Source: Flavobacteriaceae bacterium (GTDB lineage: Bacteria > Bacteroidota > Bacteroidia > Flavobacteriales > Flavobacteriaceae). Taken from it: DNA of 43,759 nucleotides. A program made the position numbers and the translations under genes. The stretch's first letter is position 1. Each line of letters begins with the position of its first letter. The stretch lies in assembly GCA_029247985.1 (NCBI GenBank), contig JAQWKF010000075.1:1-43759 (forward strand). The letters are read 5' to 3'. The notes below the pieces were generated by a model. The model made no database searches and was not told the DNA's origin. It was given only the letters and a program-made list of their open reading frames with translations. Shown here one piece after another: positions 13,269 through 42,043 of this stretch.

Positions 13269-15709
13269 AAAAACTAGCGCTTGCTTTCCTATACTACTTA
13301 AGTTGTCATTTCGTTTTACATGCGCAAAACACTACTCTACAAGGTATCATTACTAATGATAAGCAAGAACCCATACCCTATGTGACGGTAAGCACAAATA
13401 CGGGCTTTGGCACCACCACAAACCAGAACGGTTTTTATCAATTGAATTTACCCGCTGAAACAAAATTTGTAGTCAGCTTCTCTCATATTGCTCATGAAAA
13501 GGTAGTAGTAACCATTACTCCGCAACCCAATACCGTTCAAGAATTCCACCCTGTAATGAACACCAAACGCGCACAAATGGGCGAAGTAGTAGTCATGGGA
13601 AATCAGTCTTCCAAAATTAGTGGGGTAACTGTCTTATCCCCTGAAACAGTACGTAGTATTCCTGGTGCAAATGCGGGCGTTGAGAACTTACTCTTAAGCT
13701 TACCAGGGGTAAATTCAAATAACGAACTCAGTACGCAATATGCTGTTAGAGGAGGAAATTATGATGAGAATTTGGTTTACGTAAATGGAATCGAAGTGTA
13801 TCGGCCAACCCTAATCCGTGCTGGACAGCAAGAAGGATTAAGCTTTTTAAATCCCGACCTCATTCAACAAGTATCGTTTAAGGCTGGTGGTTTCGAAGCA
13901 CGTTTTGGCGACAAACTTTCTTCGGTATTAGATATTACCTACAAAACACCAACGCAAAAAGTATTACGTGTAGATGCGAGTTTATTGGGAGGTGGAATAA
14001 GCTATGGCAATACGAAGGGTAAGTGGTCTGCAATTGTAGGCGCACGCTATCGCGACAACCAATTGCTGGTTAACCAAAAGGAAACCAGTGCGCAATACCA
14101 GCCTTCATTTGCTGATCTACAATCCTTTATTAGTTATCAAAAAAGTGATAAGCTAAAATTTCAATTTCTAGGTTCTGTTTCTAGAAACGTTTATAATTAC
14201 GCACCCCAAACTAGACAAACAAATTTTGGAACTGCCAGTGATCCACGTGCGCTATTGGTTTATTATGAGGGTAGTGAAGAAGATATTTACCAAACTTATT
14301 TGGGTGCACTAAAGGCCACTTATCAGCCATCTGAAAACAACCAATATGTTTTGACAACTTCTATTTATCATACCCAAGAGCAAGAGTATTTTGACATTAT
14401 TGGGCAATATTTGCTTGGCACACCAAATACGCAGATTGGCTCTGAAGACCTAGGTAACATATCCTTTGCAGAGGGTATTGGCAGTCAGCATACACATGGA
14501 AGAAACGATTTTGATGCTCTCATAACATCTGTAAATATTTCTGGAAAACATCAGCTAGACAAGCAGGAATTACGATGGGGTGTGTCATTAAAATCTGAAG
14601 ACATACGCGATCGAATAGTTGAGTGGGAAAAAATAGACTCTGCAGGCTTTTCTATACGTCCACCACACATCACTGCTAAAAACAACCAACCCTATGAACC
14701 ATTTGAAGGACCATTGACTTTGTTCAATAACATAAGGGCTACCCAACATAGTACGCTCAACAGAATTTCAGGCTACCTACAATGGAATAATCGTTTTTTG
14801 ATGGGAAAAAAAATAGCATGGTTGTCGGCTGGAATTCGGGTACACCATTGGAACCTGTCAAACTTTAGCAATTCTGGTAGTACATTTGTTAGCCCACGTG
14901 CGCAATTGAGTTTTCAACCTGTAAACAACCCTAATATAGTAACGCGTTTATCAGTTGGAAATTACACCCAAGCCCCATTTTACAAAGAATTAAGGGGTAT
15001 TGACGGTAAGATAAATCCATCCGTAAAGCCACAACAATCTATTCATGCAGTAGTAAGTCAGGATCGAACATTTCAACTTTGGAAAAGGCCGTTTGTATTT
15101 AGAGCTTCTGCATACTATAAATACTTGTGGGATGTCAACCCCTATACCTTGGAAAATGTACGCATTCGGTATGCAGCGAATAACGACACAAAGGCTAAAG
15201 TTTACGGCTTAGATATGCGCCTAAATGGTGAGTTTGTTCCAGGCACTGAATCTTGGATAAGCGTGGGGCTATTAAAAGCAGTTGAGAATCAAAATAATCG
15301 TGGAGATATACCAAGACCTACAGACCAAAGATTAAAATTTGCCATGCTTTTTCAAGACTATGTACCTAGGTTACCATTCTTAAAAATGAACTTAAATTTG
15401 GTTTACAACACTGGTCTTCCAGGCGGCTCTCCTAGCTATGCTGACGCCTACAATTATCAAAACAGATTGCGCAACTACAAACGTGCCGATATTGGCTTTT
15501 TGTATGTCATAAAAGACGACACCCGTTTTAGAAATACCTTCAATGCATTTAAGGAACTAGAAGTTGGGGTCGAAATTTTCAATATATTCAATGTACAAAA
15601 CGCGATTACCAATACTTGGGTAAGAGATGTCTATACACAACGTCAATTTGCCGTTGCCAACTACATGACTCCGCGTGTATTCAATATCAAAATCAAAGCA
15701 AAATTTTAG
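13265..15709 (+). CDS. TonB-dependent receptor-like outer-membrane protein with a CarboxypepD_reg N-domain
   Basis: Signal peptide, then LQGIITNDKQEPIPYVTVS (carboxypeptidase-regulatory-like fold). A plug-like region follows (IPGANAGVENLLLSLPGVN ... AVRGG). The long beta-rich body ends in ...IKIKAKF, a terminal aromatic residue. Confidence 0.85.
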   Translation: MKKLALAFLYYLSCHFVLHAQNTTLQGIITNDKQEPIPYVTVSTNTGFGTTTNQNGFYQLNLPAETKFVVSFSHIAHEKVVVTITPQPNTVQEFHPVMNTKRAQMGEVVVMGNQSSKISGVTVLSPETVRSIPGANAGVENLLLSLPGVNSNNELSTQYAVRGGNYDENLVYVNGIEVYRPTLIRAGQQEGLSFLNPDLIQQVSFKAGGFEARFGDKLSSVLDITYKTPTQKVLRVDASLLGGGISYGNTKGKWSAIVGARYRDNQLLVNQKETSAQYQPSFADLQSFISYQKSDKLKFQFLGSVSRNVYNYAPQTRQTNFGTASDPRALLVYYEGSEEDIYQTYLGALKATYQPSENNQYVLTTSIYHTQEQEYFDIIGQYLLGTPNTQIGSEDLGNISFAEGIGSQHTHGRNDFDALITSVNISGKHQLDKQELRWGVSLKSEDIRDRIVEWEKIDSAGFSIRPPHITAKNNQPYEPFEGPLTLFNNIRATQHSTLNRISGYLQWNNRFLMGKKIAWLSAGIRVHHWNLSNFSNSGSTFVSPRAQLSFQPVNNPNIVTRLSVGNYTQAPFYKELRGIDGKINPSVKPQQSIHAVVSQDRTFQLWKRPFVFRASAYYKYLWDVNPYTLENVRIRYAANNDTKAKVYGLDMRLNGEFVPGTESWISVGLLKAVENQNNRGDIPRPTDQRLKFAMLFQDYVPRLPFLKMNLNLVYNTGLPGGSPSYADAYNYQNRLRNYKRADIGFLYVIKDDTRFRNTFNAFKELEVGVEIFNIFNVQNAITNTWVRDVYTQRQFAVANYMTPRVFNIKIKAKF

Positions 15710-16854
15710 CTTTTTACATAGTCAACAAGAATATCAACAAGTTTGTCAATTTCTTTTTTTGTGTTGTGAGCTGAAAAAGAAAAACGCAAGGACGGCACCT
15801 TGTTTTGCTCAGCAGTTAGCAAGTTTTGCAACACATGAGAGCCCCCCTCGCTCCCAGATTGACAAGCACTGCCTTTAGAACAACACACGCCCTGTAAATC
15901 AAGATTAAAAGCCAAGAGTTGCGCTTTCTTCTCATCCATGGGCAGACGTGCATTTACGATCGTATACGTACTGCTTTCAATATCGCCAGATGCACCATTG
16001 AATGTTGTGCCGGGCAAGGCAGCTTGTAATTGGGCTAGGCAATAGCTTTTTAAACCCTTGATATATAAAGCATCTGCTTGCATACGTTGACAGGAAATTT
16101 GAAAGGCAGCTTGCATACCAACGATATTATGAACGGCCTCTGTACCTGCGCGCATTCCGCGCTCTTGTGATCCCCCCAAAAGTATACCGCTTAAGCCCGT
16201 ATCCTTTTGAATATATAAAAAACCAACGCCCTTGGGTCCGTGAAATTTGTGTGCCGAGGCTACAGCGAAATCTACGGGAAGCTTTCCAAAGTCCAAGTAG
16301 AAGTGACCGATGGACTGAACGGTATCTGTATGGAATAACGCATTGTGTTCGTGACATAGGTTTCCAACTGCCTCAAGGTCTAATATGGTCCCTACTTCAT
16401 TATTGACATGCATCAGGCTCACCATTTTTTTCTCATCACTACTGCTCAATAAACGTTTCAGATCGTCTGTGTCGGGCAAACCGTTGGGAAGTATTTTTAC
16501 CAAGTCTAATTTTATATGCCCCTGTTGAGCCATGTGTTCTAAGGGATGAAGTACTGCATGGTGTTCTATTGGAGAACTAATAAAGTGACGAATTTTCAGT
16601 TGATGTAAAGCAGATTGCATCACTGTATTATCACCCTCTGTTCCACCAGATGTGAAAATAATTTCTTTGGGCAAAACGCCCATTTGATTGGCGATGTATT
16701 TTCGGGCAGACTCAACCTTAGCCTTTGCCGAACGTCCTGCCGCATGGACAGAAGATGGATTGCCAAAATCTTCTTGCATCGTATCATGCATGGCTTTGAT
16801 AACTTCAGGATAAATTGGAGTAGTTGCAGCGTTATCAAAGTAAATCAAATCCAT
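15706..16854 (-). CDS. cysteine desulfurase (class V aminotransferase, NifS/IscS-like)
   Basis: IYFDNAATTP N-terminus, the PLP-lysine motif SAHKFHGPKGVGFLY and the catalytic-Cys region GSACQSGS. Confidence 0.9.
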   Translation of the reverse strand: MDLIYFDNAATTPIYPEVIKAMHDTMQEDFGNPSSVHAAGRSAKAKVESARKYIANQMGVLPKEIIFTSGGTEGDNTVMQSALHQLKIRHFISSPIEHHAVLHPLEHMAQQGHIKLDLVKILPNGLPDTDDLKRLLSSSDEKKMVSLMHVNNEVGTILDLEAVGNLCHEHNALFHTDTVQSIGHFYLDFGKLPVDFAVASAHKFHGPKGVGFLYIQKDTGLSGILLGGSQERGMRAGTEAVHNIVGMQAAFQISCQRMQADALYIKGLKSYCLAQLQAALPGTTFNGASGDIESSTYTIVNARLPMDEKKAQLLAFNLDLQGVCCSKGSACQSGSEGGSHVLQNLLTAEQNKVPSLRFSFSAHNTKKEIDKLVDILVDYVKS

Positions 16855-23846: not shown

Positions 23847-25493
23847 ATGAGAGCTTTTCTCTTTTCTTGTTTATTGCTATTGTCCGCTACAGGATTATGG
23901 GCACAGGAAAAAGAAATAGAAATACGCCAAGCGGGCTCATTTCAGCTTGATGAAGAAAACTTTCCAGGAGCTAATATCTTAGAGCGAAGTGCCACCCAGC
24001 AGGTACATCTAGTGCATCAAGGCATGGATGTATGGTCTGATAAGGCGTTTTTTTATAAAAAAGAAAATAGATTTGATGCCTTTGGAAATGTTCGCATCAC
24101 ACAAGGCGATAGCTTGGTGCTTACCAGCAAGACTGTCAATTACAACGGCAAAATAAAACTAGCCGTTGCAAAAGAACAGGTTGTGCTAGATAACAAGGAA
24201 ATGCTGCTTAAAACGGATACGCTCTATTTTGACAGAGCTAAAAATATAGCCTATTACCCTGCTAACGGTACGGTTTATGACAGTTTAACAACAATAAATA
24301 GCAAAAGAGGTACTTATATTTCTGATAGCAAAAAATACAAGTTTGAAAACAAAGTGGTAGTCAACAATCCTGACTTTACATTGACCTCTGCTCGTATGGA
24401 TTTTTACACCGAAACAAAACACGCTTTTTTTTACGGACCTACCACAATTATAGGAACAGATTATGTGGTTCGCTGCCGTGAAGGCTTTTATAACACAGTT
24501 ATGAAAGAGGGATTCTTTAAGAAAAATGCATCTGTAGACTACAACAACCGAAATATCATTGGGGATAGCATCTATTTCAATGATACCAAAAAATATGCAT
24601 CAGCCACCCAAAATATTCGGATAACAGATACTATAAATAATTCCATTATCACAGGGAATTATGGGCAGGTGTTTAAAGAAAAAGACTCGGCTATGGTAAC
24701 ACACCGAGCGGTTGCTATTAATGTAGTTGAACTGGATTCCCTTTACATTCATGCAGATACACTTATAGCAACTGGCCCTCCTGAACAACGAATCATACGT
24801 GGATTTCACGATGTACGCATCTTCAAAGAAGATTTGAGTGGCAAGACAGACTCGATACACTTTAACCAAACTTCTGGGCGTGCAAAGCTCATTAGACGTC
24901 CAATCACTGACCGTGATTTACAATATTTAACTCCACAAGAGATTGCAGATCGCAACCCCATATTATGGTCTGATGAAAGTCAAATGACAGGAGACGAAAT
25001 CCACCTTACCATAGACAACGAAGAAGAAGTGTTAGATTCACTGCTTATCTACAATAACGCTTTTGTCATTGAACAAGACAGTTTAAATGCGGCTAATTTT
25101 AATCAAATCAAAGGGCTTCAACTAAAGGGCAAATTCAAAGGCAAAAGCCTTGAAATAGTAGACGTTATTCAAAATACAGAAATGGTTTATTATATCTATG
25201 ATGATGAAACACTTGAACTGACAGGAATAGATAAAGCCATATGTAGTGCTTTACGCCTAGAATTTGAAGACAGTGGTATTGAAAAAATTACTTTTTTCAC
25301 AAATCCCGACGGGGTCGTTTATCCCCCTGATGACCTCCCTGAAAACACTAGGCAGTTACTTGGTTTTACATGGCGAGAAGATGAGAGAATATACAGCAAG
25401 GAAGATCTGTTTCACGGCATAGACCTCGAACGCTACAACATAAAAGGCAATCAGCCAGAAATAGAAGGAATCCCAATAAAATTAAAAAGATAG
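23847..25493 (+). CDS. OstA-like (LptD N-terminal-like) periplasmic/outer-membrane protein
   Basis: Signal peptide MRAFLFSCLLLLSATGLWAQ, then repeated beta-jellyroll-like segments (GNVRITQGD, DTLYFDR..., ADTL). The family call is from recollection of flavobacterial OstA-like proteins of similar length. Confidence 0.5.
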   Translation: MRAFLFSCLLLLSATGLWAQEKEIEIRQAGSFQLDEENFPGANILERSATQQVHLVHQGMDVWSDKAFFYKKENRFDAFGNVRITQGDSLVLTSKTVNYNGKIKLAVAKEQVVLDNKEMLLKTDTLYFDRAKNIAYYPANGTVYDSLTTINSKRGTYISDSKKYKFENKVVVNNPDFTLTSARMDFYTETKHAFFYGPTTIIGTDYVVRCREGFYNTVMKEGFFKKNASVDYNNRNIIGDSIYFNDTKKYASATQNIRITDTINNSIITGNYGQVFKEKDSAMVTHRAVAINVVELDSLYIHADTLIATGPPEQRIIRGFHDVRIFKEDLSGKTDSIHFNQTSGRAKLIRRPITDRDLQYLTPQEIADRNPILWSDESQMTGDEIHLTIDNEEEVLDSLLIYNNAFVIEQDSLNAANFNQIKGLQLKGKFKGKSLEIVDVIQNTEMVYYIYDDETLELTGIDKAICSALRLEFEDSGIEKITFFTNPDGVVYPPDDLPENTRQLLGFTWREDERIYSKEDLFHGIDLERYNIKGNQPEIEGIPIKLKR

Positions 25494-28153: not shown

Positions 28154-28202
28154 TACGCTTTACGCTTGATTGCGTAATTTTACATTCCAACACATCAGCC
28201 TA

Positions 28203-29144
28203 ATGAAGCAATCCGTGAAAGAACATATTGTCATCTATCTCAAAGGCTTAGCTATGGGCGCAGCTGATGTGGTTCCAGGAGTTTCTGGAGGTACCATTGC
28301 GCTCATCACACATATCTATGAAAGACTCATTAAAGCTATAGACAAGGTTTCAATTACATTACTCTTGCAGTTGTTTGGTCGTGATAGAAAAGCGGCTTGG
28401 CAATCTCTTGATGGTCCATTTATATTGGCGTTAACACTAGGAATTGGCACAGGTATGCTATTAGTAAGCAGTGGCATTTCATGGCTGCTAACGGCATACC
28501 CTATCCCATTATGGGCCTTTTTCTTTGGACTGATACTAGCAAGTGCCTTTGTTTTAAAAAACAGTGTTTCTAGATGGAATATTTCCGCTTTCACAGCTAT
28601 GATATTAGGTTTTCTTGTTGCTTTGGGAATAGGATTAATTACGCCCAGCTCAGGTTCAGATAGCTTACTATATCTCTTTTTCTGCGGTATGCTTGTGGTT
28701 ATTGCCATGATACTCCCCGGAATTTCTGGTGCGTTTATTCTCATCTTACTCGGTGCGTACGAAACTGCCTTGAACACATTAGATAAAATAAAGGCCTTTG
28801 AAATTGAGGGATTGATTGTTTTCTTGGTAATGGCTGCAGGGGGATTGATAGGGCTAAAAGTTTTTGCAAAGGTTTTACGGTGGCTTTTTGCTCAACACAA
28901 AAATATCATTTTGGCAACGATGACAGGCTTTTTAATGGGCTCATTGTACAAAGTATGGCCGTGGAAAAAAATCTCAGCATACTACACCAATAGCAAAGGA
29001 ATTGAAGAACCGCTAACGACAAAAGTTACGCTGCCAGAATTCTCCAACCCCGATGCACAGGTGTTACTGGCTTCAATAGCATTTATAGCGGCATTATGTT
29101 TGTTGTATTTTTTAGAAAAATTTAGCAGAAAAAACCATGTCTAA
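28203..29144 (+). CDS. DUF368 family membrane protein (PopT-like), copy 1
   Basis: Trimmed to the ATG at 28203. GLAMGAADVVPGVSGGT and the internal repeat LPGISGAFILILLG. Multi-pass membrane protein. Confidence 0.85.
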   Translation: MKQSVKEHIVIYLKGLAMGAADVVPGVSGGTIALITHIYERLIKAIDKVSITLLLQLFGRDRKAAWQSLDGPFILALTLGIGTGMLLVSSGISWLLTAYPIPLWAFFFGLILASAFVLKNSVSRWNISAFTAMILGFLVALGIGLITPSSGSDSLLYLFFCGMLVVIAMILPGISGAFILILLGAYETALNTLDKIKAFEIEGLIVFLVMAAGGLIGLKVFAKVLRWLFAQHKNIILATMTGFLMGSLYKVWPWKKISAYYTNSKGIEEPLTTKVTLPEFSNPDAQVLLASIAFIAALCLLYFLEKFSRKNHV

Positions 29145-30063
29145 GCGATCAGTATCAGATTATAGCTTATTAATCCTCAAAGGGATTGCTATGGGTATTG
29201 CTAATAAAATTCCAGGGGTTTCTGGAGGTATAGTTGCAGTCGTGACAGGTTTTTATGAAGAGCTTATTTTTTCCTTTCAACGCCTAAATTTCAAAGCCAT
29301 ATCGCTGCTTTTTAGAGGTCGCTTTAGAACTTTTTGGCAATACATTAATGGCACGTTTTTAATAGCCTTGTTTGTTGGGGTTATACTGAGTTACTTCACC
29401 CTTTCGCTAATGCTGGACGCTGCCTTAAATTCCTATCCACTAAACGTGTGGGCATTATTCTTTGGTTTGGTTTTGGCATCTGCACTAATCTTGTATCGAG
29501 ATTTCAGCAATTGGCGTAAAAGAAATTTGTTGCTTAGCCTTGTCGGACTAGCTGTTGGTATTGGTTTAAGTGTGTTGTCGCCATCAGAAGAAAATACCAA
29601 CCTATTATACATTTTTTTGTGCGGTTATTTGAGCATCATAGGGATGACTTTACCCGGCTTATCGGGATCGTTTTTACTCATTCTAATGGGCAATTATTCA
29701 CTACTACTGGTAGACAGTGTAAATGCTTTGGGTAGATATATCATAAGTCCGTTTAGCAGCATTGAGCTACTCCCGCAAGACGAGACGTATGCCCTTATGT
29801 TTGCCGTATTCCTACTAGGTTCATTGGTTGGTATCAGCAGCTTGTCAGCCCTTATTCACAAAATCCAACAACGTGCCAAAGACGAACTCCAAGCCGTATT
29901 GATTGGATTTGTTTTTGGATCGCTGTTTATTCTTTGGCCTCCAAATAGAATTGCTAATTTTGCAGAAGTAAATAACATATCCGACAGCATCTGGGCCATT
30001 TTGTGGTGTGGTGTTGGCTTACTTGTTGTTTTTGCACTAGATTATTATGAGCGAAAAAAATAA
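29137..30063 (+). CDS. DUF368 family membrane protein (PopT-like), copy 2
   Basis: GIAMGIANKIPGVSGG and LPGLSGSFLLILMG. The start overlaps the end of copy 1 by 8 nt. Confidence 0.85.
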   Translation: MSKRSVSDYSLLILKGIAMGIANKIPGVSGGIVAVVTGFYEELIFSFQRLNFKAISLLFRGRFRTFWQYINGTFLIALFVGVILSYFTLSLMLDAALNSYPLNVWALFFGLVLASALILYRDFSNWRKRNLLLSLVGLAVGIGLSVLSPSEENTNLLYIFLCGYLSIIGMTLPGLSGSFLLILMGNYSLLLVDSVNALGRYIISPFSSIELLPQDETYALMFAVFLLGSLVGISSLSALIHKIQQRAKDELQAVLIGFVFGSLFILWPPNRIANFAEVNNISDSIWAILWCGVGLLVVFALDYYERKK

Positions 30064-34638: not shown

Positions 34639-34717
34639 GCTACAAATGTAAGTAATGAATTTTTGGAAATCATGGATTTGGTTTCATCTCAAAACTTATC
34701 TTTGAAAAAAAAATGAG

Positions 34718-35527
34718 ATGAGCAGAGCCATTATCGAAGCAGCTTGGGAGAACCGAGCGCTTTTACAAGAAGAAGAAACACAACAAGCCATTCGTAAGGT
34801 CATTGACCAGTTAGACCAAGGAATACTCCGCGTTGCTGAACCAACCCATGAGGGGTGGCAAGTAAACGAATGGGTGAAAAAAGCCGTGGTACTCTACTTT
34901 CCCATTCAAAAAATGGAAACCATTGAAGCTGGACCTCTTGAGTTTCATGATAAAATTCCGCTAAAAACAGGTTATAAAGAAAAAGGTATTCGTGTTGTGC
35001 CGCACGCTGTGGCACGTAAAGGCGCCTATATTTCTTCTGGCACCATATTGATGCCTTCTTACGTTAACATTGGTGCCTATGTAGACGAAGGTACCATGGT
35101 AGATACTTGGGCCACTGTGGGGAGTTGTGCGCAAATTGGAAAAAACGTTCACTTAAGTGGCGGCGTTGGAATTGGTGGTGTTTTAGAGCCCCTTCAAGCT
35201 GCACCTGTGATTATTGAAGATAATGCATTTATTGGCTCGCGCTGTATCGTAGTAGAAGGTGTTCGCGTAGAAAAAGAAGCCGTACTAGGAGCCAATGTAG
35301 TATTGACGGGATCTACTAAAATTATTGACGTAACCGGCGATGAGCCTATTGAACGCAAAGGTCGTGTTCCTGCAAGATCTGTAGTCATTCCAGGAAGCTA
35401 TACCAAAACATTTGCAGCAGGCGATTATCAAGTACCTTGTGCCCTTATCATTGGCAAAAGGAAGGAAAGCACCAATAAGAAGACCTCTCTTAACGATGCA
35501 TTAAGAGAATACAATGTGTCTGCCTAA
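34718..35527 (+). CDS. dapD: 2,3,4,5-tetrahydropyridine-2,6-dicarboxylate N-succinyltransferase
   Basis: Length and N-terminus (IEAAWENRALL) fit DapD. The hexapeptide-repeat body (GAYVDEGTMVDTWATVGSCAQIGKNVHLSGGVGIGG) supports the call. Confidence 0.9.
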   Translation: MSRAIIEAAWENRALLQEEETQQAIRKVIDQLDQGILRVAEPTHEGWQVNEWVKKAVVLYFPIQKMETIEAGPLEFHDKIPLKTGYKEKGIRVVPHAVARKGAYISSGTILMPSYVNIGAYVDEGTMVDTWATVGSCAQIGKNVHLSGGVGIGGVLEPLQAAPVIIEDNAFIGSRCIVVEGVRVEKEAVLGANVVLTGSTKIIDVTGDEPIERKGRVPARSVVIPGSYTKTFAAGDYQVPCALIIGKRKESTNKKTSLNDALREYNVSA

Positions 35528-35910
35528 TGTCTATTCAGTATATTTTAGTGGATGCATGGAACACTTTGGTAACTGAAGATGGTATTAACAATCAAATGCT
35601 TTCACTTTTAAACCAGTATGAGACTCGGAAAGTGATTGTAACTAATGCCACTGAAGAAGAAAAAATTAAGTTTGGTATCACTGAAATGCCCTACCCCGTA
35701 TTTAGTTTGGCCCACCAACCTAACAAAACAGACCCTATTTATTTTACAAGGTTGTTGTCATATTTGTCCGTTACTTATAAAGAAGTAATTTATTTTGACC
35801 ACAACCCAAAAGCATGTGAAGCTGCTATTTCGTTAGGAATTAAAACGCATTTTCATTCCAAAGGAGCTAACCTTATACACTTGGTCGCTTTCTTAGACAA
35901 ATACCTTTAA
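35527..35910 (+). CDS. small HAD-superfamily-like protein with a degenerate motif I
   Basis: ILVDAWNTL (DxDxT-like, with Trp at the second Asp position), VIVTNA (motif II), a Lys in NKTDP, and FDHNP (motif IV-like). The start overlaps the dapD stop (TAATG). Confidence 0.5.
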   Translation: MSIQYILVDAWNTLVTEDGINNQMLSLLNQYETRKVIVTNATEEEKIKFGITEMPYPVFSLAHQPNKTDPIYFTRLLSYLSVTYKEVIYFDHNPKACEAAISLGIKTHFHSKGANLIHLVAFLDKYL

Positions 35911-35912
35911 TT

Positions 35913-36497
35913 ATGGCGTATAATATTCGATTAGAGGGAAAAAACCTGATGGTCGCGGAGCGTATGCTTTCTCGCATTTCGCTTATTTTAAATTATTGTG
36001 AAATAAGCTATTGGTTAGAAGGAGGAACATTACTTGGAATCCGTAGAGAAGATAGGCTACTCCCTTGGGATGATGATATAGATGTGTCCATGATGGTGGA
36101 TCAAGAAGATAAACTTCCCCTATTTTACAGAAAACTAAAAAAGGCTGGATATCGTGTAAAAAAACGTTACTTTAAGAGAGATGATGCTCCGTTTAAAAGA
36201 GGTTCTTTACGAATGATTAAAATTCGTGAACGAAGGTTTTTTGGACTAATCAAAGGAGCAGTATGCTTAGATATTTTTATAAAATACCCCAACAATATGG
36301 ATTGTTACTGGGAAATAGCTGATAAGAAAAAATCTGTTCCTAAAAAGTTTTACAAAACTTTAAAAAACATAACGTTTAAAGGTCAAGAATATTCTATCCC
36401 GAAAATGACAGACGCCTATTTAACCTATCGCTATGGAGAATGGAAAACACCAATTAAAGATTGGGACACAGCCAATGATGACAAAGCCTTAGCCTAA
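35913..36497 (+). CDS. LicD family phosphotransferase (CDP-alcohol-dependent, fukutin/LicD-type)
   Basis: YWLEGGTLLGIRREDRLLPWDDDIDVSM is the LicD nucleotidyltransferase-fold signature with a DxD. The YRYGEWKTP C-terminal motif is also present. Confidence 0.8.
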   Translation: MAYNIRLEGKNLMVAERMLSRISLILNYCEISYWLEGGTLLGIRREDRLLPWDDDIDVSMMVDQEDKLPLFYRKLKKAGYRVKKRYFKRDDAPFKRGSLRMIKIRERRFFGLIKGAVCLDIFIKYPNNMDCYWEIADKKKSVPKKFYKTLKNITFKGQEYSIPKMTDAYLTYRYGEWKTPIKDWDTANDDKALA

Positions 36498-37111
36498 TTT
36501 TTTTTTGAGAGTTTTAACGTATTTTTTAAAATGGTACTACTAACACTTTTGGTGTAAGGTAAATATTCCACAGGGCAAGTCGTTTTCGGAAATCTGCCCT
36601 TCCAATCATCACCTACAGAAATAGCATCAATATTATGCAGATCAACTATTCGCTGTTTGTTTTTGTCGACTTGAGGGATTACCTTATCTACGCAACTAAT
36701 GGATTCAATTACTCTTAAACGCTCCTCAAAAGGAATGACAGGACGATTTCCTTTTTCTTTCTCTATAAGCTCATCAGTGGAAACTCCAACAATTAAAAAA
36801 TCGCACATTTGCTTAGATCGTTTCAAAATATTAAGATGACCGTAGTGAAAAATATCAAAACAACCAGAGGTATACATTCGTTTATAAGGTGTGCTGTTGT
36901 TGGACACTTCAAGACTAGCGCTAGGAATATCGTCAGACACAATATTAATTGAAACAGGGATGCTTAATACGGCTAAAATTGCTTTTAAAACCTCAAACAG
37001 TGAGTCGAAAGATTTCTGATTTGGGTTGTTAATGTGTAATGTACTCTCAGTAATTTCAAAACTCCAATTGGAATATTTTGACAATATGGGCTCTAATTTT
37101 TCTAGTTCCAT
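36494..37111 (-). CDS. cytidylyltransferase, TagD (glycerol-3-phosphate cytidylyltransferase)-like, with an N-terminal extension of about 75 aa
   Basis: The C-terminal ~130 aa align by eye to TagD: YTSGCFDIFHYGHLNIL (HxGH), VGVSTDE, VDKVIPQ, DAISVGDDWKG, YLPYTKSVSSTILK (RTxGISTT-like). Confidence 0.8.
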   Translation of the reverse strand: MELEKLEPILSKYSNWSFEITESTLHINNPNQKSFDSLFEVLKAILAVLSIPVSINIVSDDIPSASLEVSNNSTPYKRMYTSGCFDIFHYGHLNILKRSKQMCDFLIVGVSTDELIEKEKGNRPVIPFEERLRVIESISCVDKVIPQVDKNKQRIVDLHNIDAISVGDDWKGRFPKTTCPVEYLPYTKSVSSTILKNTLKLSKKN

Positions 37112-37192
37112 GTTTCTGAAAAAAATTCTTTACGACAACCGTAAAACTACAAAACAATGTGATGAGAAATAATAAATCTTACTTAATTATTG

Positions 37193-37222
37193 TTTGTTAA
37201 TGCTTTTTATACGTTAAATTTG
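37193..37222 (+). promoter_or_regulatory. Bacteroidota-type promoter for the + strand genes of the island
   Basis: TTTG (37193-37196), an 18-nt spacer, then TAAATTTG (37215-37222, TAnnTTTG). It ends 24 nt upstream of the ATG at 37247, in the divergent intergenic region. Confidence 0.4.
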
Positions 37223-37246
37223 ATAATCAAAATAGCGTAAAAATTA

Positions 37247-37927
37247 ATGAAAATTATCATTCTCGCCGCTGGGATTGGCTCTCGATTAGGAAATCCATTT
37301 CCAAAACCACTTACCCCTTTAAAAATTGGTAAAAGTATTATGGAGCTTCAGACCAATTACTTGTCATCGAAATTTGACATACATGCTATCCATGTAGTAG
37401 TAGGCTTTAAAAAAGATTTAATCATGGAGCGGTTCCCGCAATTGACATATGTATACAATCCCTTTTTTGACAGAACCAATACTTCAAAAAGCCTTTTGAA
37501 AGCCTTAAAGAAAAATCGAAATGAGTCTGTGCTCTGGTTAAATGGGGATGTTGTGTTTGATGAAAAAATTCTTGAAATTCTTGAACCACACATAAAAGAA
37601 AATGTTTCGTTTGTTGCGGTGAACACCAGTAAAGTAGCCGAGGAGGAAGTAAAATATACCTTAAAAAATAATTTTATATTAAAACTTTCAAAGGAAGTTT
37701 CTGGTGGTTTAGGTGAAGCAGTCGGCATAAATTTTATTTCATCAAATGATATAGATAATTTCATTTCAAGACTTGAAGAATGCGATGACAATGATTATTT
37801 TGAAAGAGGACTGGAATTAGCAATTGAAAAAGATGGCATTAAGGTTAAAGCAGTAGACATCTCTGCTTTTAATTGTATGGAGATTGATTTTTTAGATGAC
37901 TTAGAGAAAGTTAATAAAATGCTTTAA
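37247..37927 (+). CDS. LicC-like nucleotidyltransferase (phospho-alcohol / sugar-phosphate cytidylyltransferase family)
   Basis: MKIIILAAGIGSRLG..PKPL N-terminal NTP-transferase signature. Overall length and layout resemble LicC (CTP:phosphocholine cytidylyltransferase). Substrate cannot be told from sequence. Confidence 0.75.
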   Translation: MKIIILAAGIGSRLGNPFPKPLTPLKIGKSIMELQTNYLSSKFDIHAIHVVVGFKKDLIMERFPQLTYVYNPFFDRTNTSKSLLKALKKNRNESVLWLNGDVVFDEKILEILEPHIKENVSFVAVNTSKVAEEEVKYTLKNNFILKLSKEVSGGLGEAVGINFISSNDIDNFISRLEECDDNDYFERGLELAIEKDGIKVKAVDISAFNCMEIDFLDDLEKVNKML

Positions 37928-37930
37928 TCG

Positions 37931-39739
37931 ATGAAGTTTATTCTTTTTTGTCAAAACAATTACGCCTACGGGATCTTGAATCCAATCAAGCGGGTGATAA
38001 TTGAAAAAAAGTATTCATATCTATGGTATATACCCAAAAAACTAGTTAAAGATTTTCCTCATAAAGATGAAAACCACAGCTCGTCAATGTCTGAATTGGC
38101 AGAATTTAAAAGTGATATTATTTTTGTGCCTGGCAATCAAGTACCTTACTACTTAAGAGGGTTAAAAGTTCAGGTTTTTCATGGTTTTGCTGGAGAAAAA
38201 AAAGGGCATTTTAAAATTCGTCATTATTTTGATTTATATCTTACACAGGGGCCATTTTTTACTAAAAAGTTCAAATCACTACAACAAAAACATAAGAATT
38301 TTGAAGTAATAGAAACTGGATGGCCAAAGTTGGATGTTTTTGCAAAAAATAATGTTGCTTTTAATATTGAAAAAGAGAATTTATTAAAAAAATACAATGC
38401 GGAAACTATCATTTTATATGCTCCAACTTTTTCACCTAAGCTAACTTCTGCGCCCTATTTGGGAGCGCATTTAAAGCAATTGGCTCAAAATAAAAATTAC
38501 CTTATAGTCATAAAATTTCACCCATTAATGGATTTAAAATGGATTGAAACATATCGTACTATTGCTTCAAAACATCTTAATATTATTATCCAAGAAGATA
38601 AAAATATTGCAAAGCTTGTAGCCATTGCAGATTTAATGATTAGCGACACTTCCTCAGCTATTTATGAGTTCTTGCTATTGAACAAGCCTGTCGTTTCTTT
38701 TGGTAATATTTCAAAAAACATTCTTTGGGAAAATTCCAAAAGCTATAGCGCACTACCAGAACTTGTTAGCAAGAATCTTCAAAAAGATCCTTTTGCCGAA
38801 GAACGTAAAGTTATTTTTGACTTATTTCATCCATATAATGATGGTAAATCAGCTGAAAGAATGGTAGATGCATCCATTGAATATATTAACAAACACGGCA
38901 TTCCAAATAACAGAAAACTACCCTACACAAGAACGCTTAAAATAAACGCAATGTTTGGAGCTGCGCCTAGCACAAAAAACAAACCTGCAAAACTTACCGC
39001 ATTGATTACTTGCGGTAATGAAATTCATAACATTGAAGCTGTAATTAAGTCCGTAGATTTTGCAGATGAAATACTGGTAGCTGACAGTTACAGTTCCGAC
39101 GGAACCTATGAAAAGGCTTTAGAAATGGCCTCTAAAGTCATCCGCAGAGAATATGAGTACGCTGCATCTCAAAAGAATTGGGCAATTCCTCAAGCGTCTC
39201 ATGAATGGATTTTGCTCGTTGATGCTGATGAAAGAGTAACTCCTGAGCTAAGAGAAGAGATATTGAGCATTTTAAAGAACCCTCCAAGCAATATTGTTGG
39301 TTATTGGATTGGAAGAAGAAATTACTTTATGGGAAAGCGAATTTATTACAGCGGTTGGAAAAACGATAAGGTCATACGCTTATTTAAAGGAGCACACTGT
39401 CGCTATGAAGACAAATATGTTCATGAAGAAATTAACGCTAGCGGAGCTATCGGAAGCTTATATCACAAATTTGAACACAATACTTTTGTTACTCTTAATG
39501 ACTACATTGAAAAAATGAATCGCTACGCTGATTATCAAGCTAAAGACTACGACAAAAAAACAGGGAAGCTAAACCCTTACCATTTTGTATTAAAACCCAT
39601 TTGGAGATTTTTAAAACACTACTTTATTCAAGGCGGTTTTCTAGATGGAGTTGCAGGTCTAAGCATTGCGTATATTCAATCTTATGCTGTATTTATGCGA
39701 TATGTAAAATTATGGCTTCTACGAAAAGGCACGAAGTAA
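37931..39739 (+). CDS. fusion protein: TagB/TagF-like CDP-glycerol glycerophosphotransferase domain + family 2 glycosyltransferase domain
   Basis: The N-terminal ~330 aa carry IILYAPTFSPK, IKFHPLM and ADLMISDTSSAIYEFLLLNKPVV (Glyphos_transf pattern). From about nt 38990 the C-terminal part carries LTALITCGNEIHNIEAVIKSVDFADEILVADSYSSDGT ... LLVDADERV, a GT2 (WaaE/KdtX-like) pattern with a DxD. Confidence 0.8.
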   Translation: MKFILFCQNNYAYGILNPIKRVIIEKKYSYLWYIPKKLVKDFPHKDENHSSSMSELAEFKSDIIFVPGNQVPYYLRGLKVQVFHGFAGEKKGHFKIRHYFDLYLTQGPFFTKKFKSLQQKHKNFEVIETGWPKLDVFAKNNVAFNIEKENLLKKYNAETIILYAPTFSPKLTSAPYLGAHLKQLAQNKNYLIVIKFHPLMDLKWIETYRTIASKHLNIIIQEDKNIAKLVAIADLMISDTSSAIYEFLLLNKPVVSFGNISKNILWENSKSYSALPELVSKNLQKDPFAEERKVIFDLFHPYNDGKSAERMVDASIEYINKHGIPNNRKLPYTRTLKINAMFGAAPSTKNKPAKLTALITCGNEIHNIEAVIKSVDFADEILVADSYSSDGTYEKALEMASKVIRREYEYAASQKNWAIPQASHEWILLVDADERVTPELREEILSILKNPPSNIVGYWIGRRNYFMGKRIYYSGWKNDKVIRLFKGAHCRYEDKYVHEEINASGAIGSLYHKFEHNTFVTLNDYIEKMNRYADYQAKDYDKKTGKLNPYHFVLKPIWRFLKHYFIQGGFLDGVAGLSIAYIQSYAVFMRYVKLWLLRKGTK

Positions 39740-40707
39740 TTAAAAAGTTAAAATCAGTGGATAACAATCATATACCAATAGATGCTGTCATAACATGGGT
39801 TGACAATGGTGATGCAAAGCATTTAGAAAAGATTTTAAAATATATACCCAAGGCTCAGAACGAAAGACGAAAAAAACTTAAAAAGCAACTAATTGAAGTT
39901 GAAGAATTAAAATACGTTGTGCACTCCATAATAAAATATGCACCGTTTATTCGTACGATTTATATTGTGACTGATAATCAATGCCCAAAATTTTTAAAAA
40001 AGAGTGATGAAAGGTATACCAAAGTAAAGATTATTGATCACAAGGATATTTTTAAAGACGATGCCGCTTATCTTCCTGTATTTAACTCTAGGAGTATTGA
40101 AACAAAACTTTATGATATACCCAATCTTTCAGAACACTTCATCTATTTTAATGACGATATATTTATACTAAAACCTTTGGATCAAACTCATTTCTTCCGT
40201 GAGGGACTTCCCGTAATTAGGGGGAAATGGGAAAAGTTTAAAGATGATAAATTCTACAAGAAATTTACTACAAAAAAAGAAGATACAAAACCTAAACACG
40301 GCTTGGCGCAAGACCTAAGTGCAAAAACAATTGGATTCAAAAAGGTCTTTAGATTTCAGCACACGCCAATACCTATTAGAAAAAAGGTGTTAAAAGATTT
40401 TTTTGAGCAAAATCGAAAGCTCGAAATAAAAAATATAAAGCATAAATTTCGACACAAAGAACAGTTTCTTATTCAAGGCATTGCCAATCACATTGAAATC
40501 AAAAACAAAAGTGGCATCATGCTTCAGGATTATCAACTCGTAAATATCACATCACACAAAAAAAAGATTATTTGGCTATATTTCAAGCTACATGTTCTAG
40601 CAAATAAACAGAATAAACTGTTTTTAAATATCCAAAAATTAAATCTTTACAAAGAGGCAAATAAAAAATTTGTCTTGGAGTGGTTAGAGAAAAAATACAA
40701 ACTGTAA
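39712..40707 (+). CDS. Stealth family (CR1-CR4) hexose-1-phosphate transferase
   Basis: From the ATG at 39712: IDAVITWVDNGD (CR1), ELKYVVHSIIKYAPFIRTIYIVTDNQCPKFL (CR2), LPVFNSRSIETKLYDIPNLSEHFIYFNDDIF (CR3). The 5' 111 nt of track ORF 39601.. lie inside the previous gene and are not counted. Confidence 0.8.
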   Translation: MASTKRHEVIKKLKSVDNNHIPIDAVITWVDNGDAKHLEKILKYIPKAQNERRKKLKKQLIEVEELKYVVHSIIKYAPFIRTIYIVTDNQCPKFLKKSDERYTKVKIIDHKDIFKDDAAYLPVFNSRSIETKLYDIPNLSEHFIYFNDDIFILKPLDQTHFFREGLPVIRGKWEKFKDDKFYKKFTTKKEDTKPKHGLAQDLSAKTIGFKKVFRFQHTPIPIRKKVLKDFFEQNRKLEIKNIKHKFRHKEQFLIQGIANHIEIKNKSGIMLQDYQLVNITSHKKKIIWLYFKLHVLANKQNKLFLNIQKLNLYKEANKKFVLEWLEKKYKL

Positions 40708-40713
40708 AAAAAC

Positions 40714-41472
40714 ATGAAAATATTCCCATTTTACTATATCAAAAAACTATACAAACTCAAGTACTTAACACATAAGTACCTCCTCAAAACCACCAAGCCC
40801 ATAAAATCAGTTTATGACGTGTATTTAACGCCTAATTTTTATGACACTACCTTCATGTATTACTTTAAGGGAACCTATGGTTTTTTTCTTAGTGATTTTA
40901 TAAAAAATATATCATCCGCAACTACCTTTATCGACATTGGAGCCAATCAAGGTTTATTTAGTATTCTAGCTGGAAAAAATGAACATATAAAGCAGATCAT
41001 CGCATTCGAGCCAACAAAAAGAACAGCTAACTTATTACGTGCCAATTTGGCTTATAACAAAATTGAAAATTGCCTTGTCGTGGAGAAGGGCATTTCTGAC
41101 AAACGAGGTTTCTTGAATTTGAATGTAGCACATGGACACTCTGGAAAAAACACCTTTAGAACAAACAACTTAGATAAAAATATCGTTAGCGAAAAAGTTG
41201 AAATAACAAATCATGAGGATATTGAATTGCTCTTTCAAGAAAACACAAATTATGTCATAAAAATTGATGTCGAAGGGCATGAAGAAATTGTAATAAATGA
41301 ACTTACGAAATGTTCCTTTATTCAAAATGTGTCTTATATTTTTTGCGAAATTGACTCCAATTGGGTGGATGTAGAACGCCTTAAGAAAAAGCTCACTTCA
41401 GTTGGCTTTACTACATTCAAAAAAATTGGTAAAGGCTCTATTCATTATGATATGCTAATTTCAAAAAATTAA
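40714..41472 (+). CDS. FkbM family methyltransferase
   Basis: FIDIGANQGLFSILAG ... IIAFEP (SAM-binding Methyltransf_21 pattern), IKIDVEGHE. Confidence 0.75.
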   Translation: MKIFPFYYIKKLYKLKYLTHKYLLKTTKPIKSVYDVYLTPNFYDTTFMYYFKGTYGFFLSDFIKNISSATTFIDIGANQGLFSILAGKNEHIKQIIAFEPTKRTANLLRANLAYNKIENCLVVEKGISDKRGFLNLNVAHGHSGKNTFRTNNLDKNIVSEKVEITNHEDIELLFQENTNYVIKIDVEGHEEIVINELTKCSFIQNVSYIFCEIDSNWVDVERLKKKLTSVGFTTFKKIGKGSIHYDMLISKN

Positions 41473-41482
41473 GTTTAAGCTT

Positions 41483-42043
41483 ATGTACGCGGGCAATATA
41501 GTCAATGTGTTTTCCGATTATCTTGAGGATAGCAAAACCCTCCTCTACCCCACGGACACCATCTGGGGGCTGGGTTGTGATGCTACAAATCAAGAGGCTG
41601 TAAATCGCATCTATACCCTCAAAAAACGACCAAAAAACAAACCCCTAATTGCGTTGGTTTCAGACATTAAAATGCTGGCGCAATATATTGAAACACTGCC
41701 CATTGAGATAGACAAACTGTTAGCAAGCGAGCTACCCACCACCATTGTTTACCCAAATGGAAAAGGACTAGCAAAAGGCGTAATTGCACAAAATGGCAGT
41801 GTAGCCATTCGTATTCCCGCAGCCGGTTTTGCTCTTGATTTAATCAAATCCTTTGGCAAACCCATAGTAAGTACCTCTGCAAATATCAGTGATGCACCTA
41901 TTCCAGAAAGCTTTGACGAAATAGATCCGCATATTTTGGCGCAAGTAGACGAAGTAGTACCTTTGGACAAAGAAAAAGTAGCGCGTATTCCATCACGAGT
42001 ATTCCAAATTATGCCCGATGGTAGTGTGAAGCAGTTGCGATGA
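41483..42043 (+). CDS. tsaC: L-threonylcarbamoyladenylate synthase (YrdC/TsaC)
   Basis: LLYPTDTIWGLGCDATNQEAVNRIYTLKKRPKNKPL and VSTSANISD motifs. Confidence 0.85.
   Translation: MYAGNIVNVFSDYLEDSKTLLYPTDTIWGLGCDATNQEAVNRIYTLKKRPKNKPLIALVSDIKMLAQYIETLPIEIDKLLASELPTTIVYPNGKGLAKGVIAQNGSVAIRIPAAGFALDLIKSFGKPIVSTSANISDAPIPESFDEIDPHILAQVDEVVPLDKEKVARIPSRVFQIMPDGSVKQLR

Follow-up and report, generated by a model that had tools for sequence, protein, structure and literature searches.

A variable dapD-tsaC slot of Flavobacteriaceae carrying three phosphodiester-forming enzyme families, with a probable role in lipopolysaccharide core assembly

Gene content and boundaries of the locus

We analysed a 43,759-nucleotide stretch of DNA from a Flavobacteriaceae bacterium (GenBank assembly GCA_029247985.1, contig JAQWKF010000075.1, positions 1 to 43,759 of the forward strand), hereafter the window, in which six successive open reading frames (ORFs) occupy positions 35913-41472, between dapD and tsaC. 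With a probability of about 0.6, we read this block as the local version of a conserved Flavobacteriaceae slot for the assembly and decoration of the lipopolysaccharide/lipooligosaccharide (LPS/LOS) core and lipid A. Domains were assigned by Pfam and NCBIfam profile searches of the block proteins against curated cut-offs, solved structures were compared by sequence and profile searches against the PDB, and folds were compared using Foldseek with AlphaFold2 (AF2) models built with alignments of database homologues. An earlier note on this DNA had assigned the six genes to the LicD, TagD-like, LicC-like, TagF-like/family 2 glycosyltransferase (GT2), Stealth and FkbM families, and the profile searches confirmed each of these assignments. 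The features of the locus are as follows.

34718-35527, + strand: dapD (NF008808, E 1e-110), constant left edge of the variable slot
35527-35910, + strand: HAD-like protein, 127 aa, weak TIGR01509 match
35913-36497, + strand: LicD, 194 aa (PF04991)
36494-37111, - strand: TagD-like cytidylyltransferase (PF01467, CTP_transf_like)
37112-37246, no strand: intergenic, 135 bp, candidate promoter of the rightward unit
37247-37927, + strand: LicC/PntC-like cytidylyltransferase (PF12804, NTP_transf_3)
37931-38965, + strand: TagF-like domain (PF04464), residues 1-345 of a 602-aa fusion
38966-39739, + strand: GT2 (GT-A) domain (PF00535), residues 346-602 of the fusion
39712-40707, + strand: Stealth, 331 aa (Stealth_CR1, Stealth_CR2)
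40714-41472, + strand: FkbM methyltransferase (TIGR01444, PF05050)
41483-42043, + strand: tsaC (TIGR00057, E 1e-38), constant right edge, syntenic in relatives

The genes are tightly packed, with gaps and overlaps from -28 to +10 nt inside the block, a 1-nt overlap between the dapD stop and the HAD-like start, a tsaC gene that begins 10 nt past FkbM, and a 4-nt overlap between tsaC and the following cca-like gene. This spacing suggests co-transcription with dapD on the left and with tsaC-cca on the right, in two units, one comprising dapD, the HAD-like gene and LicD, and the other running from the LicC-like gene through cca; dapD would probably be the first gene of the left-hand unit, and tsaC is probably co-transcribed with FkbM and the cca-like gene. 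A Bacteroidota -7-type motif, TATCTTTG, stands at 34697-34704, ahead of dapD, as weak evidence for a promoter there. The intergenic stretch 37112-37246 likely holds the promoter of the rightward unit, on weak evidence: a -7-like motif, TAAATTTG, lies at 37215-37222, 25 nt ahead of the LicC-like ATG at 37247, and is not enriched across the window. A sigma-70 promoter and terminator scan of the window was uninformative (28 sites against 30.8 expected), Bacteroidota promoters being different.

Pfam searches of the remaining window ORFs of at least 110 aa, which look housekeeping, found no WbaP/WecA, Wzx/Wzy/Wzz or ABC-2/Wzt/TagGH/Kps gene, and no gene for a choline kinase or permease, in agreement with the missing priming, export and LicA-LicB genes of the earlier note. 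Priming and export genes were likewise not found in the 10-kb flanks of four relatives, and the wall teichoic acid markers TagO/TagA, TagGH and LCP were found neither in the window nor in the relatives' flanks. With no such genes in the window or in these flanks, the block is not a self-contained capsule or teichoic-acid locus, in line with the view of the earlier note.

A conserved slot across the Flavobacteriaceae

A scan of one genome per species yielded 320 loci encoding relatives of the fusion protein, of which the best 80 were kept and mapped by tblastn with the window proteins; counts are taken from the 66 loci that hold both boundaries. The loci were retrieved via the TagF-like gene. 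In all 66 complete loci, the LicC-like/TagF-like pair lies between dapD and tsaC/cca, in genera that include Maribacter, Arenibacter, Cellulophaga, Muriicola, Winogradskyella, Gelidibacter, Pontimicrobium, Formosa, Robiginitalea, Flavobacterium and others. Three relatives, among them the complete genome of Maribacter sp. HTCC2170 (fusion protein 50% identical), share the order def, ruvX, dapD, a variable part, the LicC-like gene, the TagF-like/GT2 gene, a second variable part, tsaC, cca and ctaA, and dapD is 79-88% identical in all related loci. The dapD-tsaC interval ranges from 2.7 to 9.0 kb, the smallest intervals holding the LicC-like/TagF-like pair alone (for example the 2.7-kb locus L043).

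The block has a GC content of 0.326, and the remainder of the window one of 0.393. A dip of this kind recurs in 66/66 loci, where the slot lies below its flanks by a mean of 3.5 points, and the low GC of the block is therefore a property of the slot rather than a mark of recent transfer. Recent acquisition, or a mobile element, was considered and ruled out by the constant position in 66/66 loci, the slot-wide low GC and the absence of mobile signatures: no phage relatives of the block were matched, the sole plasmid match was an 89-bp one to an adenylyl/cytidylyltransferase gene of a Parabacteroides distasonis plasmid, and neither flanking repeats nor an adjacent tRNA was found at the block. 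The earlier picture of a compact, acquired island is thus not sustained, given the same position of the pair and the low GC in all loci.

Nor do the six genes travel together. Of the 66 loci, all have the LicC-like gene next to the TagF-like gene, 38 have LicD, 33 the TagD-like gene, 6 Stealth and 1 FkbM, and the six genes are three modules of very different frequency, not one travelling unit. Synteny couples TagD-like with LicD and LicC-like with TagF-like, which is the reverse of the textbook pairing implied by the labels of the earlier note.

An ABC-2 pair located downstream in relatives was considered as the missing exporter and rejected; its best NCBIfam matches are lantibiotic, daunorubicin and GldA-type ATPases, and it lies ~5 kb off, past COX15, a gene with a PRiA4 domain and one on the opposite strand. 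Downstream of this pair, two loci (L002, 18288-21818, and L004, 19489-21833) encode very large adhesin-like proteins with CHU_C domains, sorted through T9SS (the type IX secretion system), in a region past the window's end.

The invariant LicC-like/TagF-like module

The LicC-like gene adjoins the TagF-like gene in 66/66 loci and, at 69-87% identity, about the level of dapD, is the invariant and most conserved gene of the locus. Its product matches NTP_transf_3 (48.7 bits, E 1.2e-12), and a profile search against the PDB returned PntC (6PD1, E 6e-6) and LicC (1JYK, E 3e-5). Foldseek with the AF2 model (pLDDT 84.9) gave LicC as the top match (1JYL, E 3e-14, TM 0.77), together with the phosphonate-specific PntC (TM 0.82). 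Sugar-1-phosphate enzymes rank closely after LicC and PntC in both the profile and the fold searches, and we also considered that the protein might act as a sugar-1-phosphate nucleotidyltransferase whose product is used by a hexose-phosphate transferase of TagF-like type. From its constant neighbour, the LicC-like enzyme presumably supplies the donor for the TagF-like domain. No licA/licB-type supply genes (choline kinase, permease) were found in the window or in the loci of relatives. Public sources give orthologues of the LicC-like protein three automatic names that conflict, namely choline kinase, phosphocholine cytidylyltransferase family and L-glutamine-phosphate cytidylyltransferase.

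Homologues of the fusion protein number in the thousands, with full-length relatives at 47-80% identity in many Flavobacteriaceae genera. Its first half contains Glyphos_transf (PF04464, residues 101-257, 76.5 bits against a cut-off of 22.1, E 2.5e-21) and its second half Glycos_transf_2 (PF00535, residues 358-473, 52 bits, E 1e-13). Sequence and profile searches of the PDB matched the TagF-like half to TarL (8VA1) and Cps3D (8QOY), the Cps3D alignment being remote (E 2e-10 over ~130 residues), and Foldseek with the AF2 model of the fusion (pLDDT 88) matched TagF (3L7I, E 1.8e-10, TMt 0.53), TarL (8VA1) and GT-A enzymes. TagF has two catalytic histidines, H444 and H584. In the fusion, the invariant H197 (KFHP motif) aligns with the KMHP of TarL, and the invariant H84 (FHG motif) is a candidate first histidine, situated outside the aligned region and beside a low-confidence loop (residues 86-95). 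The GT2 half, which has long C-terminal helices, matches GmaR, SunS and K4CP, and its residues D431-A-D433 (DxD-type) and D385/S386/D390 are invariant. The two halves differ in conservation, the TagF-like domain being 51-76% identical across loci and the GT2 domain 29-86% and replaced or missing in some lineages; in Flavobacterium species, the TagF-like protein stands alone without GT2, at ~342 aa.

The LicD/TagD-like/HAD-like module

LicD matches PF04991 (60.4 bits against a cut-off of 22.6, E 3.5e-16) in two separate stretches and carries a DDDID acidic motif (LPWDDDIDVSM), the DxD-type motif expected near the N-terminus; the corresponding acidic motif of Mf1 is Asp51/52/54 (PMC11982090). 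Mf1 is also its best NCBIfam match (E 2e-12), with a score of 47.8 against an equivalog cut-off of 225. We predict a minimal CDP-alcohol phosphotransferase of the LicD family, and the adjacent TagD-like gene gives indirect support to a transfer of alcohol-phosphate from a CDP-alcohol. The TagD-like enzyme (PF01467, 72.6 bits, E 5e-20) has its HxGH motif as FHYGHL, and among PDB entries it is closest to B. subtilis TagD (1COZ, E 2e-27), with human ethanolamine-phosphate cytidylyltransferase (ECT) at E 1e-23; its score against the TagD equivalog TIGR01518 is 99.6 bits, below the cut-off of 165.4. An N-terminal extension of ~75 aa (36887-37111) had no family match in the profile search, and several relatives align to the catalytic part of this enzyme alone.

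In the window the TagD-like gene is convergent with LicD and overlaps it by 4 nt, and in all 33 loci that have it the TagD-like gene is next to LicD and convergent, never occurring without it. In some loci the pair is placed upstream of the LicC-like gene and in others downstream of the fusion gene, and with two alternative positions it therefore moves as a cassette. Five loci have a divergent LicD (46-51% identity), directly ahead of the LicC-like gene, without a TagD-like gene. The small HAD-like protein has a weak TIGR01509 match (E 1.6e-4) and no Pfam match, and its gene, present in 15/66 loci, is directly upstream of LicD each time. Because it is found in relatives solely together with LicD (15/15 loci), gene context places this ORF functionally with the block, as a putative accessory to the LicD/TagD-like pair.

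The Stealth and FkbM genes

In the Stealth protein, CR2 (121.7 bits against 39.4, E 2e-35) and CR1 (28.4 against 27.2, E 1e-6) were found, and CR3 and CR4 were undetected even at E<=10, so that of the four conserved regions named in the earlier note only the first two could be recovered. PDB matches include M. tuberculosis CpsY (8J2N, E 5e-24) and GNPTAB, with alignments covering residues 21-170 alone, and a short-form hexose-1-phosphate transferase is predicted. The ORF extends up to a TTG at 39601, and the ATG at 39712 agrees with the separately called 331-aa protein; this start overlaps the end of the fusion gene by 28 nt in another frame. FkbM matches TIGR01444 (E 1e-21) and PF05050 (Methyltransf_21), with a weak RfbT-like match.

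Stealth and FkbM are a lineage-specific insertion. The relatives at 71% identity (L002, L003) pass from the fusion gene directly to tsaC, without Stealth, and the relative at 80% (L001/L005) has Stealth and FkbM in the window's position. A full FkbM homologue in the same place was found solely in L001/L005 and in L087, while L072 has a 27% opposite-strand match. In the close relative L087 (1477-3219), GT2 and Stealth form a single ORF of 580 aa, with FkbM and tsaC coming next, and this fusion, together with the overlap at 39712-39739, suggests recent domain reshuffling at the junction.

LPS-type genes in the slots of relatives

In 68 loci, the dapD-tsaC intervals hold 73 other ORFs, which fall into 26 clusters and were scanned against Pfam and NCBIfam. 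A kinase of the family of LPS kinases acting on 3-deoxy-D-manno-oct-2-ulosonic acid (Kdo), the Kdo/WaaP family, was present in 17 loci, with Kdo kinase and RfaP as the best NCBIfam matches; a YrbL-like kinase cluster has 4 members in 3 loci, and 5 loci have a gene of the GT9 heptosyltransferase family. A lipid A acyltransferase of LpxL type lies in the slot of L083 and in that of F. commune, the latter reading dapD, Stealth, TupA-like, Stealth, TagF-like, Kdo-kinase-like, epimerase, an unassigned gene, LpxL-like and tsaC. Further families are a second GT2 (12 loci) and a TupA-like ATP-grasp protein (9 loci), along with another PF04464 protein, GT4, GT-D, UDP-galactopyranose mutase (Glf), and pyruvyl- and sulfotransferases. 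Not one of the 68 intervals contains Wzx, Wzy, Wzz, Wza, Wzc, an ABC exporter or an initiating phosphoglycosyl transferase. The earlier note had left open whether export genes ever accompany the block; in the slots of relatives, Wzx/Wzy and ABC exporters never do.

These findings favour the LPS core among the acceptors listed in the earlier note. Its proposal that the block acts on a glycan made elsewhere holds in part, the relatives' slots also holding the glycan's own glycosyltransferases.

Several neighbouring or locus-specific features were recorded alongside. Locus L077 (12854-17006), from a Flavobacterium metagenome-assembled genome, contains in its dapD-tsaC slot a GT4 gene and a sialic-acid cassette, made up of a NeuB-like gene, a CMP-sialate synthetase~HAD fusion and a GT52/polysialyltransferase-like gene, which hints at sialylated LOS in an environmental flavobacterium. 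The Tenacibaculum locus (L085) has the slot order dapD, a TupA-like gene, Stealth and tsaC, and immediately past its cca, at 11967-16493, a 608-aa MsbA-like ABC protein (ABC_membrane and ABC_tran) together with a phosphogluco/mannomutase and a GT2. In the window itself, an LPS-transport-related 548-aa OstA_2/LptD_N-like protein is encoded at 23847-25493, and tandem DUF368/VCA0040-like genes (28170-29144 and 29137-30063), undecaprenyl-phosphate translocase-like, lie ~6 kb upstream of the block, the pair being kept in L002.

A proposed role in LPS/LOS core assembly

Core oligosaccharides are built in the cytoplasm, with Kdo-lipid A as their direct support, and exit by way of MsbA and Lpt. A core locus therefore needs no linked priming, flippase, polymerase or exporter genes, which would explain the absences recorded in the earlier note. 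We infer the acceptor, the donors, the order of steps and the choice between single addition and oligomerisation in the scheme that follows, in which Kdo-lipid A-core itself would be acted on at every step, at the inner membrane's cytoplasmic face. The LicC/PntC-like enzyme would use CTP to convert a small phospho-alcohol into its CDP (or CMP) conjugate, with glycerol phosphate as the simplest guess because no dedicated kinase or synthase is linked. The TagF-like domain would then move the alcohol-phosphate onto Kdo or an inner-core sugar, comparable to CpsA acting on Kdo, and the fused GT2 domain would attach the next sugar, which may vary between lineages. As a separate, optional pair, the TagD-like enzyme would make CDP-glycerol or CDP-ethanolamine and the minimal LicD would add that second head group, the small HAD-like protein going with them. 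In this lineage, Stealth would contribute hexose-1-phosphate from a UDP-sugar and FkbM would O-methylate a sugar, after which MsbA would flip the completed lipid A-core and Lpt would export it.

Related chemistry is documented in several organisms. In Arenibacter certesii, phosphodiester bonds join monosaccharides to the backbone of the LOS core (PMC3210612), and Arenibacter genomes have a version of the slot with HAD-like, LicD, TagD-like, GT2, LicC-like and TagF-like/GT2 genes. In the LOS of B. fragilis, Kdo and lipid A bear hexuronate-phosphate (HexA-P) and phosphoethanolamine (PEtN) (bioRxiv 10.1101/2024.04.13.589361). Among the enzymes, the PF04464 protein Cps7A/Cps3A (CpsA) adds a single glycerol-3-phosphate onto Kdo (PMC11666461), and Mf1, of the LicD family, takes CDP-choline and CDP-ethanolamine (PMC11982090). 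By analogy, such precedents would make the proposed steps chemically ordinary, and they are no proof for this locus.

Several observations weigh on the other side. GT9, Kdo kinase, LpxL and WaaA are all absent from the window itself, the link to LPS being made via relatives, and the slot could be a general collecting place for glycan genes with mixed targets; slot content without a TagF-like gene was sampled by one case, Tenacibaculum. The automatic names given to the LicC-like enzyme conflict, and its fold does not settle the substrate. The protein O-glycan of P. gingivalis carries phosphoglycerol (PMC8729774), TagF-like/GT fusions and LicD enzymes can polymerise (PMC5974469, PMC11666461), and the glycerol reported in the P. 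gingivalis LPS core has been questioned (PMC13086638).

Other acceptors and products have to be considered. The block could decorate, in the cytoplasm, an undecaprenyl-phosphate-linked glycan made elsewhere that a distant Wzx then flips, the main candidate being the Bacteroidota general protein O-glycan and the alternatives O-antigen or capsule repeat units. The (acetyl)glycerol phosphate of the P. gingivalis O-glycan sits on N-acetylhexosamine (HexNAc) (PMC8729774), and Bacteroidota O-glycans are often methylated and occasionally phosphorylated or glycerol-substituted, by enzymes still unassigned (PMC12871550); the window itself is also without an LPS-specific gene. Set against this are the 68 intervals, from which flippase, oligosaccharyltransferase-type, initiating transferase and fucosyltransferase-type O-glycosylation markers are absent, whereas lipid A- and Kdo-specific families do share them, and we regard such a route as unlikely. 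Membrane phosphoglycolipids other than LPS, whose head groups the block might add in the manner of Mycoplasma fermentans Mf1, which places phosphocholine on glucosyl-diacylglycerol, are the least supported alternative and a very improbable one. Mf1, the best NCBIfam match of LicD at E 2e-12 though far under the cut-off (47.8 against 225), does act on a glycolipid (PMC11982090), but the companions of the slot in relatives are LPS-type, not lipid-synthesis-type.

The fusion, possibly with LicD, might also be the minimal polymerase of a teichoic-acid-like poly- or oligo(glycosyl-polyol-phosphate) chain, as in the group 2 capsules of Actinobacillus and Neisseria; a glycolipid or lipid A-core would anchor the chain, and an unlinked system would export it. 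Two-domain proteins of TagF-like and GT type are stand-alone capsule polymerases (PMC5974469), the region-2 set CpsA-D of A. pleuropneumoniae serotypes 3 and 7 (App3/7), in which CpsC polymerises glycerol-3-phosphate, closely mirrors the block (PMC11666461), and both the profile and the model of the fusion match Cps3D (8QOY). The earlier statement that the island has no polymerase genes hence cannot be asserted, TagF-like/GT and LicD-family enzymes being polymerases in App3/7. However, the fusion lacks the TPR domain needed for processive elongation by CpsD, is 602 aa long and encoded by 1.8 kb, whereas known polymerase genes exceed 2,500 bp (>~830 aa), and its TagF-like-then-GT-A order fits neither known architecture. 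Some loci have another domain in place of GT2, or none, whereas the TagF-like domain persists (29-86% identity for GT2 against 51-76%), which is unexpected for an obligately alternating polymerase; moreover, kpsMTED/kpsSC, TagGH and Wzt are absent from the window and the relatives' flanks, and the downstream ABC-2 pair is generic. Polymerisation by the fusion thus appears distinctly unlikely, and core assembly and decoration is the reading that we prefer.

Within this preferred reading, a more specific and, to us, somewhat doubtful possibility is that the Flavobacteriaceae inner core bears a conserved teichoic-acid-type phosphodiester unit made by the LicC-like/TagF-like-GT2 pair, and that the present lineage stacks up to three mechanistically distinct chemistries (TagF-, LicD- and Stealth-type), together with methylation, on one lipooligosaccharide. 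If true, an alcohol-phosphate and sugar unit would sit on Kdo or the core, and a Gram-negative core would be partly made by wall-teichoic-acid enzymology.

Neither the gene families nor the idea that LOS loci can do without export genes is new, such loci being the norm. In the literature searched, the family-wide dapD/tsaC slot, the invariant LicC-like/TagF-like pair and the occurrence of three phosphodiester chemistries together appear to be new; our literature search (glycerophosphotransferase/phage resistance; LPS core/LicD) found no paper tying these gene families to Flavobacterium LPS. The genetics of the LPS core are thinly known in the Flavobacteriaceae, a family of abundant marine polysaccharide degraders and fish pathogens. 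The practical value of the slot is moderate. It can be found in any genome via dapD and tsaC, and would offer a handle for predicting core/LOS diversity as well as phage-receptor and serotype variation, and candidate genes for the phosphodiester-linked sugars of the Arenibacter LOS core.

Comparison with known systems

The closest characterised system is CpsA-D of the A. pleuropneumoniae serotype 3/7 capsule. Both have a PF04464 transferase, a CDP-glycerol-type cytidylyltransferase, a LicD-family transferase and a TagF-like/GT fusion; in App3/7, CpsC (LicD family) extends the glycerol-3-phosphate placed by CpsA, using CDP-glycerol from CpsB, and CpsD (TagF-like/GT with TPR) makes the polymer (PMC11666461, PMC5974469). 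Unlike App3/7, the locus described here has neither kps export nor poly-Kdo genes, nor a TPR domain, and its fusion is ordered TagF-like then GT-A, whereas the known group 2 capsule polymerases are GT-A/TagF-like or TagF-like/GT-B. It adds an invariant LicC/PntC-like cytidylyltransferase, Stealth and FkbM, and it occupies a conserved chromosomal position, beside LPS-type genes in relatives.

In lacking a priming transferase, flippase, polymerase and exporter, and in the proposed placing of a glycan on lipid A-Kdo, the locus resembles the B. thetaiotaomicron LOS cluster BT3362-BT3380 and the waa loci of Enterobacteria. The Bacteroides cluster, the only one for Bacteroidota LOS to be defined by experiment, is recognised by a GT9 homologue and an LPS kinase amid glycosyltransferases and tailoring enzymes, the markers also seen in the slots of relatives, and is without a flippase or polymerase (PMC5850320). 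A text search of that paper found no mention of TagF-like, LicD or cytidylyltransferase genes for it. In contrast to BT3362-BT3380 and waa, the GT9 and kinase markers are seen solely in the slots of relatives and are absent from the window.

The lic1 locus (licABCD) places phosphocholine on the LOS of Haemophilus and commensal Neisseria. It shares with the present locus a LicC-fold cytidylyltransferase and a LicD-family transferase, and decorates LOS sugars in the cytoplasm via a CDP head group. Here, however, the LicA kinase and LicB permease are missing, and LicD pairs with the TagD-like enzyme while the LicC-like enzyme pairs with the TagF-like domain. As in the known Stealth enzymes (CpsY, GNPTAB, and meningococcal CsaB/CsxA), CR1 and CR2 are kept, and sugar-1-phosphate transfer from a UDP-sugar would be expected. 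Compared to these, the Flavobacteriaceae protein is a short form of ~315-330 aa with CR3 and CR4 undetectable, which is widespread in the family, is encoded within the dapD-tsaC slot instead of a capsule locus and, in the relative L087, is fused to GT2.

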